From the NCBI GenBank assembly GCA_903908535.1, contig CAIVSE010000042.1, positions 1-49,337 of the forward strand: DNA of 49,337 nucleotides, given 5' to 3'. The DNA comes from Candidatus Doudnabacteria bacterium (lineage in GTDB: Bacteria; Patescibacteriota; Doudnabacteria; UBA920). A program made the translations under genes and the position numbers. The notes under the pieces are model-generated. The model saw nothing but the letters and a program-made list of their open reading frames with translations, was not told the DNA's origin and did not search any database. How positions within the stretch are numbered: position 1 is the stretch's first letter; the number at the start of each line of letters is the position of its first letter. This document shows, piece after piece, positions 44,193-49,337 of the stretch.

Positions 44193-45867
44193 AAACTGGA
44201 CCGTAAAGCCATGTCCTTATGCCGACCTTGCCGCTACCTTGCTCTACCAGCGCGGCCTGACGGATAAAGAGGACATCCAAAAATTCCTTGACCCCAAGTA
44301 CGAGGATTTAAACAATCCTTTTTTATTTATGGACATGCAGAAAGCCGTGGGCCGTATTTTGGCTGCCATAAAAAATGGCGAGGGGATTTGTATTTACGGG
44401 GACTACGACGCCGACGCGGTTACCGCCAATGCCGTGGTTCAGCTGGCCCTACGCCATTTGGGCGTGGAAGTTAAATCTTACATTCCCGACCGTTTTACCG
44501 AAGGTTATGGCCTGAACCTGGAGGCTTTGCAAAAAATAAAAGATGGCGGTTCAAAAATTGTCATCACCGTGGATTGCGGCACCAATTCCGTGGATGTGGC
44601 CGAATTTTGTGCGCAAAACGGCATGGATTTGATTATTACCGACCACCACGAAATTATTGGGCCTGCGCCAAAGGCTTACGCTTTAATTAATCCGAAGAAT
44701 CCGGCGGATAAGTATCCTTACCGCGAAATTACCGGCGTGGGCGTGGCTTTTAAATTGGTGCAGGCTTTGTTTGAAAATTGTAAATTGAAAATTGAAAATT
44801 TCGCCTGGATTGAAGGGTGGGAGAAATGGCTGCTGGATTTGGTGGCCATTGGCACGGTGGCCGACTGCCACTCTTTGATGGGTGAAAACCGGATTTTGGT
44901 TAAGTATGGCTTAAAGGTTTTAGCCAAAACCAAGTGGGCCGGCTTGCGGGCCTTAATTGCAACCGCCGGTTTGGATTTCAGCCAAAAATTACCGGATACC
45001 TACACTTTGGGTTTTGTTATTGCGCCCAGGCTGAATGCCGCGGGCAGGCTGGAGCACGCGGATACGGCTTTGCATTTGCTGCTGGAACAGGACGCGGTTT
45101 TGGCGCAACAAAAAGCCGCGGTTTTGGAAAAAATCAATTCGCGGCGGCAGGAGCAAACCGCGCGCATTTTGAGCGAAGCCCGGGAGCAGGCGGAATTAAT
45201 TGCCGACAGGAAAGTTATTGTTGTGGCCGGCGAAGGCTGGAACAAAGGCATTGTTGGTTTGGTGGCCGGCAAACTGGCCGAGGAATTCCATAAGCCGGCC
45301 ATTGTTTTGGAAAAAACCGAAACAGAGTGCACGGGCTCGGCCCGCACCGTGGGCGAGTTTGACGTGGTGGAAGCTTTAAAATATGCTGCTGATTTTTTGA
45401 CCAGTTTTGGCGGCCACAAACAGGCCGCGGGCCTGACTTTAAAAACCGAAAATCTTGAAAAGTTTTACCAAAAAGTTTTGGACTACGCGGAAGTTAATTT
45501 AAAGGAAGATGATTTGCAAAAACAACTCCTGCTGGATGCGGAATTAGCCTTTGATGATTTAAGTTTAAAGACCTGCGAGCTGTTAAACCAAATGGAGCCG
45601 TTTGGCGTGGATAATGCCAAACCCAAATTTTTGATCAGGAATCTCCAGGTGGTTTCCAGCCGGGGCGTGGGCAAAGACGGCAATCATTTGCAATTAAAAC
45701 TCAAAGCCGGAAATACGGAAGTCGACGGCATTTTATTTAACTGCGGGGATTTTGCCAAAACATTGCAAATGGGCGATACTATAGACGTGGCCGCGGAATT
45801 GATGGAAGATTCGTGGAACGGCAAAAAGAAGGTTAAGCTAAGAATAATAGATTTAAAAAAATTATGA
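44185..45867 (+). CDS. recJ: Single-stranded-DNA-specific exonuclease RecJ (alternative start at 44173)
   Basis: DYDADAVT, ITDHHE (DHH motif), FGGHKQAAG (DHHA1). Confidence 0.88.
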   Translation: MPKNWTVKPCPYADLAATLLYQRGLTDKEDIQKFLDPKYEDLNNPFLFMDMQKAVGRILAAIKNGEGICIYGDYDADAVTANAVVQLALRHLGVEVKSYIPDRFTEGYGLNLEALQKIKDGGSKIVITVDCGTNSVDVAEFCAQNGMDLIITDHHEIIGPAPKAYALINPKNPADKYPYREITGVGVAFKLVQALFENCKLKIENFAWIEGWEKWLLDLVAIGTVADCHSLMGENRILVKYGLKVLAKTKWAGLRALIATAGLDFSQKLPDTYTLGFVIAPRLNAAGRLEHADTALHLLLEQDAVLAQQKAAVLEKINSRRQEQTARILSEAREQAELIADRKVIVVAGEGWNKGIVGLVAGKLAEEFHKPAIVLEKTETECTGSARTVGEFDVVEALKYAADFLTSFGGHKQAAGLTLKTENLEKFYQKVLDYAEVNLKEDDLQKQLLLDAELAFDDLSLKTCELLNQMEPFGVDNAKPKFLIRNLQVVSSRGVGKDGNHLQLKLKAGNTEVDGILFNCGDFAKTLQMGDTIDVAAELMEDSWNGKKKVKLRIIDLKKL

Positions 45868-46265
45868 AGCTGACTATAAATACCGACGGCGGCGCCAGGG
45901 GCAATCCCGGCCCGGCCGGCATAGGCGTGGTCATCCGCGGCGAAAATAATAAAATTCTCGCGGGCCATGAGCAATATATTGGCGAGGCCACCAATAACGT
46001 GGCCGAGTACAAGGCATTGATTTTAGCATTGCATGAAGCTGAAAAAATCGGAGCGACTGATTTACTTATAAATATGGATTCAGAACTGGTGGTCAAACAA
46101 ATGAAGGGCCAGTATAAAATCAAGGAGCCCGGCCTGCAATTGTTGGCCGCGGAAGCCTTTAAACTCATCAAAAATTTTCATTCCGTGAATTTTAACCACG
46201 TCCGCCGCGAATTCAACAAAGAAGCGGATAAACTGGTTAACGAGGCTATTGACAAAGGCCAATAA
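45864..46265 (+). CDS. rnhA: RNase HI-family protein (RVT_3-type RNase H)
   Basis: INTDGGARGNPGPAGIG...NNVAEYKALI...DSELVV...NKEADKL. Confidence 0.85.
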   Translation: MKLTINTDGGARGNPGPAGIGVVIRGENNKILAGHEQYIGEATNNVAEYKALILALHEAEKIGATDLLINMDSELVVKQMKGQYKIKEPGLQLLAAEAFKLIKNFHSVNFNHVRREFNKEADKLVNEAIDKGQ

Positions 46266-46327
46266 ATGCTGTATAATATATACACAGTGGAAACCCGCTG
46301 AATTTTACAATTTGAAGGAGAAAGACG

Positions 46328-46969
46328 ATGTCTACCAAGAACACGTCTGTAGTCCCCGGAGTAGCAGTTGGAACGACGCTCGCGACTGGCGAGCAGATTG
46401 AGCACATCATGGACATGTGGCGCCGTCGCCTGAAGGGTCGCGATGTGACTCTCGCAGAGGCCAACCACATCATCCAAAACGGTGGTCAATATCTGCCGGT
46501 TATGGACAAGGCCGCCGACGTCCTCGTCGATCAGGTCCGTTCCGACATGCAGAGCACCATTGTCCGCATGGTCCGTAACGTCCGCCGCAACCGAACCGCA
46601 GTTCAGGCCATCAACGACACCGGCCGCGTGCAATATGTGGATTCCTCGGTGGTCGCCACCATGCCAACGGGCGATGGGCCGGAAGATGTGGAGTTGACTT
46701 ACTTCCGCGCAAGCCGCTACCTTTCTGACGACGAGTTGGAATTGGAGTTCGGTAGCCGGGAACTGGTTCCCGACCCGCAGGCACAAGCTGCCGACAACGA
46801 AGCCGACTCCGCGTTTGCCGATGAGCACCCCAATGGGACTCATTGGAAGAACAAAAAGGGTCAGTGGTGCTTCGCCTCGTTCGACCAGGACGTCGTCGAG
46901 CGGCTCGTGCACGTTTGCCGCTTCGGCAACAGGTGGCATGACATTTGGTGGTTACCGTTCGGTTTTTAG
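46328..46969 (+). CDS. DGR target (variable) protein; C-terminus now truncated and altered by IS insertion
   Basis: GAAGGAG SD 7 nt upstream of the ATG. The last 28 codons before the IS junction match TR except at TR adenines. The ORF reads into the IS inverted repeat (..WWLPFGF*). Confidence 0.85.
   Translation: MSTKNTSVVPGVAVGTTLATGEQIEHIMDMWRRRLKGRDVTLAEANHIIQNGGQYLPVMDKAADVLVDQVRSDMQSTIVRMVRNVRRNRTAVQAINDTGRVQYVDSSVVATMPTGDGPEDVELTYFRASRYLSDDELELEFGSRELVPDPQAQAADNEADSAFADEHPNGTHWKNKKGQWCFASFDQDVVERLVHVCRFGNRWHDIWWLPFGF
46869..46953 (+). other. DGR variable region (VR), diversified part
   Basis: The 85-nt gapless alignment to 48534-48618 has 16 mismatches, all at TR adenines. Confidence 0.9.
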
Positions 46970-48170
46970 TGGATATTTTCGTCAGCTTTTTTGTAAGATG
47001 CAACCTTTTTAATACCAAGCTTAGTTAGTATGATAGGCCAGAGGGCCTGTTTTTTTATGGTAAATTCTAGGGAACAGTGTTTGTTTAAATGTTTAAATTT
47101 AGTGTCGCAATCGGTAAATGTTTTAGTTCGTCTTCGAATCATCCATGCGTTTAGCCACCTTCTTGCTGACTTTAAACTTTGGAAACCTTTAATGGTTTTA
47201 AGTCTTCCGTTTAAATGGGAGTTGTAAAGTTCGATTAAGTTAGTGTTGTTGGGACAGTTTTCAAAGTGGAAGTAAGCGAACAGGTCATTGCGTCGTTTTT
47301 CAATGTCGTCCAGGATATTCCAGAGCGTTAGATTTTTGCCAGCGTGGTTATTCCTGACGTGTTTAATTCCTTTAGTAACCTCATCGTCATTGGTGGCTTT
47401 AAACACATGCAGCTTTAATGAATTAAAGAAATGCTGATAAGTAGTTTCTGTTCGGACTCTTAAAATCTTCCTAATATTATCCAAATAGTGGTTGTGGCAT
47501 AACTGTAATCTTGCGTATGGAAAGACCTTGTTTAATGCCTGTTTTATGCCGTCACGGTCGTCGACAACCACAATACGCAGTTTGTACCCCAGGTCTTTAA
47601 TAGTCTGGAAGTAAAGAGAAAAATTTATCTCGTCCTCAGCTAGGACCACTTGGCCATGAGGCAGGTCATGGGACATGTAATCTATGCCAAATAGGAAGGG
47701 TATCTTCCGCTCAAAGTCTTTAATCGCCACGTACTTGCCGTCCAGGATTAATATGCCTGACCAAAGATTCTCATCACATAAACCCTTTGTTAATTCGGTG
47801 TTGTCCGGCAACTGGGATATTTCGGCGATGACACGCGCGTAAGTCTGTGAACTGGATAATTTTTCTTCGTCTCCCAATCTTCTAAAACCTACTCCGTCAA
47901 TGTGTTCTATCCAAAGGTTAGTGGGATTGTTGCCATGGTAAACCGAAAATGAATGCTTACATTTACGACAAATATATTTGTGACTGCGTCCCTGCTTACC
48001 ATTTTTAACAGTTTTACTACTCCCGCACAACGGACAAATTCGGTGGCGTTTTTTTTGACATCATTAATTCTTTCTTAAATATTTTAATGGTTAACTGGGT
48101 TAATACTTGATTTTATCCCTTAAGTTTAGCCAAAACATCCAATTCTATCAACCAAAAACCGAACGGTATC
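46951..48170 (-). mobile_element. IS element (about 1.22 kb) inserted in the VR
   Basis: Perfect 15-bp terminal inverted repeats TACCGTTCGGTTTTT at 46953-46967 and 48154-48168. A 9-12 bp direct duplication CATTTGGTG(GTT) lies at 46942-46953 and 48171-48182. Confidence 0.85.
46966..48030 (-). CDS. DDE transposase with N-terminal CxxC..CxxC zinc finger (IS1/IS256-superfamily-like; family unresolved)
   Basis: CPLCGSSKTVKNGK...YICRKCKHSF; VVVDDRDGIKQALNKVFPYARLQLCHNHY; TNLIELYNSHLNGRLK. The track start is TTG, and two ATGs at 48064/48061 are offset by one frame across an A8 run. Confidence 0.75.
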   Translation of the reverse strand: MCGSSKTVKNGKQGRSHKYICRKCKHSFSVYHGNNPTNLWIEHIDGVGFRRLGDEEKLSSSQTYARVIAEISQLPDNTELTKGLCDENLWSGILILDGKYVAIKDFERKIPFLFGIDYMSHDLPHGQVVLAEDEINFSLYFQTIKDLGYKLRIVVVDDRDGIKQALNKVFPYARLQLCHNHYLDNIRKILRVRTETTYQHFFNSLKLHVFKATNDDEVTKGIKHVRNNHAGKNLTLWNILDDIEKRRNDLFAYFHFENCPNNTNLIELYNSHLNGRLKTIKGFQSLKSARRWLNAWMIRRRTKTFTDCDTKFKHLNKHCSLEFTIKKQALWPIILTKLGIKKVASYKKADENIH

Positions 48171-48204
48171 CATTTGGTGGTTCGCTGGCCGCCGCAAGTC
48201 CTAG
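48171..48204 (+). other. Displaced 3' end of the target gene: duplicated VR bases, GC-rich IMH-like segment and the original stop
   Basis: CATTTGGTGGTTCGCTGGCCGCCGCAAGTCCTAG matches TR 48607-48633 and restores ..DIWWFAGRRKS* when joined to 46953. Confidence 0.8.
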
Positions 48205-48228
48205 GACTCTGGGACGCTCTGTACTCTT

Positions 48229-48244
48229 GTGTCCCCTTGGACAC
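48229..48244 (+). promoter_or_regulatory. Short GC hairpin downstream of the IMH-like segment
   Basis: GTGTCC-CCTT-GGACAC (6-bp stem, 4-nt loop), 25 nt after the original stop. Confidence 0.4.
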
Positions 48245-48533
48245 TTCGAGCCTTGCCCCGATATAACAATCGGGATGAGGCTCTTTTCTTTTGCATAAAT
48301 TATGATAAAATGAATTCAGATAAATTTGAAAATATCCGTGGGTACGCTTGCGGGTTGTTTATCTCGCAGCGCTTGGTGTCAGAATGTCGCTGGTCAAGGC
48401 TCGCGGCAGAGTATTACCAAGCGTAAAGTTCTCCAAAGGGACTTGGTGCAGTTTGCTGGTCGGGTCAATTCCCGCAAATAAAATACAGCCCCAAGAGTAT
48501 TCAAAGGGCAGTGATAAAGATGGTTGATTGCAC

Positions 48534-48633
48534 AATTCGCCACGTTCAACCAGGACGACGACAAGCGGCACGTGAACGTTAACCGCAACGACAACAGGTG
48601 GAATGACAATTGGTGGTTCGCTGGCCGCCGCAA
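48534..48633 (+). other. DGR template region (TR)
   Basis: Matches VR (46869-46953 plus 48183-48197). Adenine-rich, with seven AAY codons in the VR frame. Track ORF 48524-48835 is the TR read in the VR frame, not a gene. Confidence 0.9.
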
Positions 48634-48644
48634 ATTCCTTTGGA

Positions 48645-49010
48645 TTAAACCCCTTCCCCAGACAATGGAGAGGGGGTTTGATTTGCGAGTTGTTTCTGCC
48701 AGCCGCCAATCATATTGCCAACTTTGGTTAGACTTATGGAAAGATTGGCTATTTGCTTGTTGTCTATGGCCTTTAATTCAAAAGCCATTTGCAGAAAGAA
48801 TTTTAGTAAATCCAAGTTTAAGCTGGCTTGCTTGATAGCGCCAAGTTTTTTGTCCTTGCTGGCATAGCCGGTAATCAGAATAAGTTCCGCTTGCTTGGTA
48901 AAAAGCTGGGTTATTTTTTCTCCCAAAGAGTGTTTGAGCAATTTGGGTATGTGTGGAAAATATTGGTACCACAATTGAAAGGCCGAGGAAATTTCCAAAA
49001 CTATGGGCAA
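48645..49010 (-). CDS. avd: Avd-like accessory (four-helix-bundle) protein, inverted relative to TR and RT
   Basis: About 120 aa and helical. ..YQYFPHIPKLLKHSLGEKI...LDLLKFFLQMAFEL...VGNMIGGWQKQL parallels Bordetella Avd ..YLYPIAQSIPRKHG...LAMLRFWLRFLAG...VGRILGSWI (from recall). The track start is TTG. Confidence 0.65.
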   Translation of the reverse strand: MPIVLEISSAFQLWYQYFPHIPKLLKHSLGEKITQLFTKQAELILITGYASKDKKLGAIKQASLNLDLLKFFLQMAFELKAIDNKQIANLSISLTKVGNMIGGWQKQLANQTPSPLSGEGV

Positions 49011-49065: not shown

Positions 49066-49337
49066 ATGAAAAGTCAATTAAATATTAGCTATGAGGAAAT
49101 TATATCGCCGGAAAATTTATTTGCCGCTTGGCAAGAGTTTTTGTCGGGCAAGAGAAAGAAAAAGGATGTGCAGGAATTTGGGTTTAGGCTGACAGACAAT
49201 ATTGTACAACTTTCCGAAGAACTTGCCAATTTTACTTATATTCACAGTCCGTACAGGGCTTTTAACATATCCGACCCCAAACCTCGTAATATTCATAAGG
49301 CCAGCGTGCGGGACAGAGTTTTACACCACGCAATTTA
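49066..49337 (+). CDS. DGR-type reverse transcriptase, N-terminal 90 codons (runs off the window)
   Basis: My translation is MKSQLNISYEEIISPENLFAAWQEFLSGKRKKKDVQEF...YRAFNISDPKPRNIHKASVRDRVLHHAI. It is colinear with Brt ..WENLLDAYRK..YREFLVYEPKPRLISALEFKDRLVQHAL. Confidence 0.85.
   Translation, partial: MKSQLNISYEEIISPENLFAAWQEFLSGKRKKKDVQEFGFRLTDNIVQLSEELANFTYIHSPYRAFNISDPKPRNIHKASVRDRVLHHAI

Follow-up and report, generated by a model that had tools for sequence, protein, structure and literature searches.

An IS256/Mutator-type insertion sequence within the variable region of a diversity-generating retroelement target gene of Candidatus Doudnabacteria

The contig CAIVSE010000042.1 of a Candidatus Doudnabacteria bacterium (assembly GCA_903908535.1), analysed here over its positions 1 to 49,337 (the whole stretch of 49,337 nucleotides, called the window below), carries in its last 3 kb, at the 3' end, a diversity-generating retroelement (DGR) made up of a template repeat (TR), the gene of the accessory protein Avd, the start of a reverse transcriptase (RT) gene and a target gene. 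The target gene is interrupted close to its 3' end by an insertion sequence (IS) of the IS256/Mutator type, which lies between the body of the variable region (VR) and a GC-rich end resembling the element known as the initiation of mutagenic homing (IMH). The features of this region, in which ORF stands for open reading frame, are the following:

46249-46277, plus strand: site resembling a promoter, located ahead of the target gene (TTGACA and TATAAT separated by 17 nt), a 12/12 match to the sigma-70-type consensus
46328-46969, plus strand: DGR target gene in its present form, 213 aa ending in WWLPFGF and a stop, with the last 5 codons and the stop supplied by the IS terminal repeat
46871-46950, plus strand: VR body, 80 nt, homologous to TR 48536-48615, all differences at TR adenines
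46942-46950: left copy of the target-site duplication, CATTTGGTG, 9 bp, with the diversified T at 46944
46951-48170, minus strand: IS256/Mutator-family insertion sequence, 1220 bp, with termini GTTACCGTTCGG... and ...CCGAACGGTATC
46966-48030, minus strand: ORF of the transposase, which comprises 354 aa when read from a TTG start and combines a DDE domain of the Mutator family with a zinc-binding motif at the N-terminus
48049-48056, minus strand: run of eight A (A8; read as T8 on the plus strand), close behind the transposase ATG
48171-48179: right copy of the target-site duplication, CATTTGGTG, 9 bp, with the diversified T at 48173
48180-48197, plus strand: IMH-like tract, GTTCGCTGGCCGCCGCAA, 18 nt, the A-poor, GC-rich and TR-identical 3' end of the VR
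48198-48215, plus strand: hairpin adjoining the end of the TR homology, with a stem of 7 bp and a loop of 4 nt (GTCCTAG-GACT-CTGGGAC)
48229-48244, plus strand: second hairpin
48248-48283, plus strand: terminator-like stem followed by a T-run, the element ending at 48292
48536-48633, plus strand: TR, 98 nt
48645-49010, minus strand: Avd accessory gene, 121 aa, opposite to the TR, identified by profile matches
49066-49337, plus strand: DGR reverse transcriptase, first 90 codons, cut by the window end

When the IS is removed in silico, the 98 nt of the VR differ from TR 48536-48633 at 14 positions, and 14/14 of these mismatches fall on TR adenines. The TR has 27 adenines in its 98 nt, of which 14 are changed in the VR (p about 1.5e-8), and the differences between the two repeats are therefore confined to TR adenines, as is characteristic of a DGR. 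Given this pattern, the assignment of the DGR and of its VR is regarded as solid on sequence grounds; a scan of the whole window gave only one VR-type site. The protein encoded beside the TR scores 49.8 bits against the Pfam family bAvd (cutoff 40) and 60.6 bits against the NCBIfam model DivGenRetAVD, which is under the cutoff of 80 set for that model, and it is taken as the Avd accessory protein of the system. The RT fragment of 90 residues shares 72% identity with the N-terminus of a 335-aa RVT_1 protein from a related DGR locus (L015), and it gave no match of its own in a Pfam scan, the catalytic domain being located beyond the window. The VR occupies the 3' end of the target ORF and is followed by a GC-rich, IMH-like tract and a hairpin, an arrangement proper to DGR targets whose parts are conserved in relatives and are here split by the IS. 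The GC content of the target gene is about 60%, versus about 41-46% just upstream (in an RNase H gene) and 35-47% in the IS.

At the left junction ..GACATTTGGTGGTT passes into ACCGTTCGGTTTTTAG, and at the right junction ..AAAAACCGAACGGTATC passes into CATTTGGTGGTTCGCTGGCCGCCGCAAGTCCTAG, exactly as an earlier note on this DNA had described. That note also claimed terminal inverted repeats perfect over 15 bp, and these are present: the 15-nt sequence TACCGTTCGGTTTTT is found at 46953-46967 (plus strand) and at 48154-48168 (minus strand), with no further match in the window beyond the two IS ends when up to 2 mismatches are allowed. The 15 nt form the perfect core of longer, imperfect terminal inverted repeats of about 25-27 nt (22/25 match; 89% over 27 nt). 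The direct repeat CATTTGGTGGTT can be seen at 46942-46953 and at 48171-48182, and the earlier note had left the length of the flanking duplication at 9-12 bp. The ends of the IS were compared with those of a 73%-identical relative, copies of which occupy several different sites (L005-L014), and with those of two other relatives (L018 and L021). The five related copies all end in GATACCGTTCGG... on the side upstream of the transposase and in ...CCGAACGGTAAC on the other side, and the related insertions are flanked by the 9-bp duplications TGGAAGTTC, AGAAAGATA, TCAGCAACC and GCCAAGTGG. On account of these conserved termini and 9-bp duplications, the IS of the window is placed at 46951-48170 with a duplication of 9 bp, which upholds the lower figure; the upper figure of 12 bp was rejected, since the additional GTT corresponds to the first 3 nt of the IS itself, which by chance equal the next 3 nt of the target.

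The transposase matches the Pfam family Transposase_mut (PF00872) with 48.8 bits (cutoff 21), and in NCBIfam it comes closest to IS256 (64 bits) and 'IS256 family transposase, variant Zn-binding type' (57 bits). These two scores are below the equivalog cutoff of 150, so the protein is best described as a DDE transposase of the Mutator/IS256 type that is a distant member of the family. The element resembles the IS256 family in having a single transposase ORF with a Mutator-family DDE domain, a size close to 1.2 kb, inverted repeats that are imperfect and some 25 nt long, a 9-bp target duplication and no evident target motif. The repeats fit the roughly 20-30 bp expected around an IS256 element of 1.2-1.5 kb, and the duplications, measured in the window and in four other insertions as 9 bp, fit the 8-9 bp of that family. 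It differs in its distance from the curated models, in the N-terminal CxxC...CxxC zinc motif of the transposase, in a start codon that is parted from the ORF by a conserved A8, and in that its lineage is found mainly on Patescibacteria-type metagenome contigs. The database contains 870 homologues of the transposase, of which the named ones belong to the Patescibacteria group (the closest is P0040, with 86% identity), and contigs of 1.2-2 kb carry most of them, which is what a repeated mobile element would be expected to show. Exact-sequence look-ups for the transposase and for the upstream RNase H protein gave no match.

The full N-terminus of the transposase begins at an ATG at 48064, which shares the frame of the zinc-finger transposase ORF only if one A is dropped, and in the window the resulting sequence is MMSKKRHRICPLCGSS... 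The same arrangement is present in five members of the lineage (the window, L005, the second IS of L007, L018 and L021), in which one or two codons separate the transposase ATG from a run of exactly eight A, and gene callers place the transposase starts at TTG/CTG or further downstream. The A8 run looks like a conserved control of transposase synthesis by transcriptional slippage or frameshifting. The intact ORF, the perfect ends and the several insertion sites of a close relative are indirect signs only that the IS may be capable of transposition. This is a well-delimited IS lineage, documented in genomes of the candidate phyla radiation (CPR) type and marked by a slippery A8 at the start that is conserved. 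Inside the IS, at 48055-48083 of the plus strand, there is also a promoter-like site (TTGACA / 17 nt / AATATT), which points outward to the IMH remnant and the TR, and the terminator-like stem of 48248-48292 stands between this site and the TR.

The empty site, reconstructed in silico by joining 46950 to 48180, reads ...GACATTTGGTG followed by GTTCGCTGG... When the IS and one copy of the duplication are taken out, the target ORF has 215 codons and ends in ..NRWHDIWWFAGRRKS and a stop (...WWFAGRRKS), which bears out the earlier statement that removal of the IS restores an end like that encoded by the TR. A protein search for the target retrieved 38 relatives of about 200-230 aa and 35-70% identity, devoid of any Pfam domain, of which one is named Candidatus Paceibacterota and the closest is P0002 (about 70% identical). 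When 26 of these homologues are aligned, almost every full-length member proves to end in WWFAG[VR]RK(S), with a variable stretch just before, and the restored end of the window ORF is the C-terminus of this family.

A view of the native arrangement comes from two metagenome contigs (L015/L016; k141_221799 and Ga0265316_10000470), which harbor a related DGR with a TR and two uninterrupted VRs. Each VR continues straight into ...CGCAAGTCCTAGGAC..., as the window does from 48193, and the TR continues ...TTTGGATTAA, the same as the TR of the window. These loci resemble the window in a target that is 68% identical, in the VR end, in the motif downstream of the TR, in an avd gene on the opposite strand beside the TR and in an RT N-terminus that is 72% identical; they differ in having two paralogous targets, no IS, and an RT gene located upstream of the targets on the opposite strand. 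Two further loci (L002 and L003, the latter on a Bryobacterales metagenome-assembled genome (MAG) contig) carry a divergent member of the target family with an identical and uninterrupted 40-nt 3' end. A CRISPR spacer, described below, likewise preserves this junction free of the IS. Since relatives carry the same VR ends uninterrupted and the restored ORF fits the family, the segment to the right of the IS is, by sequence comparison, the native end of the gene. The earlier note had stated that its reading would fall if no relative had an uninterrupted allele and the segment to the right of the IS lacked homology to the TR; uninterrupted alleles are found in L015/L016, L002 and L003, and this segment matches the TR at 26/27 positions. 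Scans of metagenomes and genomes with a 23-nt IMH tract recovered four loci only, none of which is an empty site of the same species. A scan of viral sequences with a degenerate VR-end pattern gave no match and thus no evidence of a phage-borne target.

With respect to L002 and L003, the target family members occupy 1553-2137 of the former and about 1808-2296 of the latter (PMTT01000502.1), and the last 40 nt that they share with the window include the stop codon and the first hairpin arm. The L003 contig is GC-rich and of Acidobacteria type, with no TR within 8 kb. This distribution suggests that the target or its VR end may have spread horizontally between very distant lineages.

As the earlier note had read it, the truncated target ends in WWLPFGF, and the end of its ORF (46969) overlaps the end of the convergent transposase ORF (46966) by 4 nt. 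LPFGF has taken the place of the last 7 residues, FAGRRKS, which form part of the near-invariant family end WWFAG[VR]RK. In an AlphaFold2 model of P0006, a 68%-identical homologue (predicted local distance difference test, pLDDT, of 91), WFAGVR (residues 206-211) is located in the last beta-strand, and G209 is invariant in the target family. In the light of this model, the exchange of FAGRRKS for LPFGF probably damages the fold, and the function of the target protein may have been lost. Foldseek searches with the P0006 model against the PDB and BFVD returned no match with E < 0.1 and weak C-type lectin hints only, and an assignment to the C-type lectins, for which these fold searches are not significant, was not made. 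No Pfam or NCBIfam domain is present in the family (about 215 aa), which may represent a type of DGR variable protein not described before.

On the other side of the IS, the GC-rich tract together with the right copy of the duplication amounts to 27 nt, 26/27 of which are identical to TR 48607-48633. The first hairpin, which encloses the native stop codon TAG (48202-48204), is conserved in position and sequence beside the VRs of the relatives, and the hairpin region has a fold z-score of -3.5. The equivalent hairpin of the second VR of L015 has a GACA loop, in agreement with the GRNA consensus reported for such loops in DGR targets (PMC3240598). The tract, the hairpin and the terminator are intact and now lie 1.2 kb from the VR body, as had been claimed. 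The IS does separate the diversified VR from the GC-rich IMH-like end, having entered where the mutable VR meets the A-free, TR-identical end. As a result of this placement, the 3' module is joined to 9 nt of VR only, and the 80-nt VR body, at a distance of 1220 bp, has lost the module.

The consequences of this separation have to be considered in terms of the DGR of the Bordetella phage BPP-1, whose parts are the VR of mtd, GC14, the IMH, a stem-loop, the TR, avd and brt. The window resembles this system in its adenine-specific differences between TR and VR, in a VR at the 3' end of the target ORF, in the presence of Avd and RT genes, and in a GC-rich, TR-identical VR end, after which comes a short hairpin, likewise GC-rich, with a loop of 4 nt. 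It differs in its gene order (target, TR, avd on the opposite strand, RT), in a small target (about 215 aa) that has neither a Pfam domain nor a significant structural match, in an IMH-like end that departs from its TR counterpart only after ...CGCAA, and in the VR being split by an IS. In BPP-1, cDNA synthesis is target-independent and is primed from an adenine in the RNA spacer of the DGR RNA; the IMH, the GC tract and the stem-loop act in target recognition, and the 5' boundary is set by homology to the TR (PMC5703328; PMC12875486). The earlier note had assumed that cDNA integration is primed at the IMH, which is the older, target-primed model and does not agree with these findings (PMC5703328, PMC12875486). 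More recent work favours the annealing of the cDNA to single-stranded target DNA at the replication fork (PMC12875486). By analogy with this distant system, it is a reasonable inference under the current model that the VR body would be uncoupled from homing.

The order of events can be read in part from the duplication. A target-site duplication copies the sequence present before the insertion. Because the A at 48609 of the TR corresponds to T in both copies (46944 and 48173), this site was diversified before the IS arrived, which is the order that the earlier note had proposed. The two copies are still identical and show no visible rewriting of either since the insertion, which is weak evidence that none took place, given that only two TR adenines lie within the duplication. 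The perfect duplication, the perfect core repeats and the intact transposase gene suggest that the event is recent. The choice of the site looks untargeted, given that the five duplications known in this IS family share no motif.

Taken together, these observations make it probable that the locus represents the decay of a DGR target mediated by an IS, that is, a recent and untargeted insertion into the 3' end of the target gene that has disabled the target. According to this proposal, a single-ORF DDE element (the zinc-finger variant of the IS256/Mutator type that is common in Patescibacteria/CPR metagenome contigs) would have transposed into the 3' end of the target gene, entering by the 9-bp staggered cut that the duplication shows. 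The insertion point follows the last diversified adenine position by 6 nt and immediately precedes the GC-rich, TR-identical tract, and the IS arrived once the last A site had already been rewritten to T, as seen in both copies of the duplication. Under the BPP-1 model, homing into the VR body would then be lost or strongly reduced, and residual homing, if any, would be confined to the 27-nt remnant.

Between the two readings offered by the earlier note, a snapshot of DGR inactivation and a locus open to repair, the first is the better supported, as the decay of DGR loci through transposons is known (PMC10907252). In Thiohalocapsa PB-PSB1 a transposon-interrupted RT coexists with intact variants (PMC10907252), and in Anabaena sp. 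90 a DGR remnant is flanked by transposases (PMC7517822). These cases share with the window the interruption or erosion of DGR components by mobile elements, and they differ in that the RT gene or the whole cassette is affected, whereas the insertion described here is inside the VR, at the junction with the 3' recognition elements. No description of an IS insertion inside a VR at this junction was found in the literature. To the erosion of DGR loci by ISs and transposons, which is already documented, this locus adds one more instance, in which the position of the IS is unusually informative.

Several points weigh against this interpretation. The IS-bearing allele is known from one consensus contig, and it may be fixed or a minority allele, with a VR that may still be variable; the RT gene is cut by the contig end at 90 codons, so that the DGR itself may or may not be intact; and no empty site of the same species was found, the nearest target homologue being about 70% identical. 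The requirement for adjacency of VR and IMH has been established for the Bordetella phage DGR only, and not for this lineage. The truncated protein retains 208/215 residues and may preserve some function. In addition, the A8 run means that the transposase needs recoding, its activity being suggested by conservation only.

The other reading of the earlier note supposes a DGR that is active and heals the locus: a cDNA derived from the TR would pair with the remnant on the IMH side and with the VR body, replace the intervening DNA, excise the IS precisely and rewrite the VR. Homology to the TR does exist on both sides of the IS (80-83 nt to the left and 27 nt to the right), the 3' recognition elements are intact, and annealing of the cDNA to a single-stranded target at the replication fork could in principle bridge the loop. 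DGR homing also tolerates differences in length between TR and VR, since published assays have achieved transfer from TR to VR of 18 nt (repair in the kanR assay) or of inserts up to about 200 bp (PMC12875486; PMC3240598). However, no published kilobase deletion by DGR homing was found, the homology beside the IMH is limited to 18-27 nt, only part of the RT lies in the window, searches gave no empty-site allele from this organism, and the copies of the duplication are still identical, with no rewriting visible after the insertion. Healing is for these reasons considered improbable, and it is, if anything, even harder to credit that the split VR is still a DGR substrate and that homing doubles as a repair process guarding its own target from mobile-element insertion. 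Short direct repeats allow precise, transposase-independent excision by replication slippage, as occurs with IS256 in staphylococci. Because the 9-bp (effectively 12-bp) direct repeats of the window would permit excision of this kind, and since ancestral alleles may also persist, an empty site is not diagnostic of DGR repair.

A second alternative is that the insertion was targeted, the IS having a preference for the GC-rich tract and hairpins at the ends of DGR targets, or that it was selected, the switching off of a surface or variable protein being advantageous. The insertion is indeed within a few nt of the VR/IMH boundary and beside strong hairpins, and a CRISPR spacer against the same junction in another organism, described below, indicates that the sequence is under some conflict pressure. 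Against this, IS256-type elements have weak target specificity, the five 9-bp duplications of the family (CATTTGGTG and the four listed above) have no common motif, and DGR genes are absent from the neighbourhood of all the other insertion sites. Targeting of the IS to DGR ends was rejected on these last two grounds, and the alternative as a whole has little to recommend it. Finally, although most relatives of the IS are on contigs of 1.2-2 kb, so that copies of the IS do break assemblies, and the contig ends inside the RT gene, the joining of the IS into the VR by metagenome mis-assembly is very unlikely, as a chimera would not yield a perfect 9-bp duplication abutting two conserved IS termini, nor flanks that rejoin into the family C-terminus, the stop codon and the conserved downstream hairpin.

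IS-mediated decay of the target, the preferred explanation, is in itself an ordinary event, the disruption of a gene by an IS insertion. The placement of the IS, on the other hand, cleanly parts the mutable VR body from an intact 3' recognition module and leaves a 9-bp duplicate of the VR on the IMH side. The locus therefore poses the question of whether homing needs the adjacency of VR and IMH and of how much heterology the cDNA can bridge, and it would constitute a natural test of the heterology that homing can bridge if the split VR does remain a DGR substrate.

Directly upstream of the target gene there is an RNase H gene (45864-46265; Pfam RVT_3/RNase_H). To our knowledge, DGR reverse transcriptases are without RNase H, and for this reason the adjacency of the gene to the DGR target is suggestive; it is not kept in the related loci examined (L015 and the contig of P0002).

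The spacer mentioned above belongs to a CRISPR (clustered regularly interspaced short palindromic repeats) array of a Bryobacteraceae genome with a 37-nt repeat, GTTTCAATCCCCTTCTCATCGGGGAGACGGCGCCGCC, and an adjoining Cas2 gene; the spacer sites are at 916-958 of L001 (Ga0209333_1016395) and at 7877-7919 of L004 (Bryobacteraceae MAG DATNMW010000327.1). The Cas2-proximal spacer, of 43 nt, is the only one of the array that matches the window, and CRISPR targeting of this genome in general was therefore rejected. It has a 31/31 nt match to the uninterrupted VR end, the IMH-like tract and the stop codon (window 48174-48204), including the VR-specific AAGTCCTAG, and its 12 upstream nt differ from the TR of the window mostly at adenine sites. 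As the spacer matches a VR-specific end and differs upstream mostly at adenines, something carrying this DGR target, in another variant of the VR, was sampled as foreign DNA.

One more member of the target family illustrates another kind of disruption. It is an orphan pseudogene (L022, 4001-4640) with no DGR genes nearby, in which a frameshift inside the VR leads to a premature stop, and the native end ...WWFAGRRKS with its stop is located out of frame downstream.

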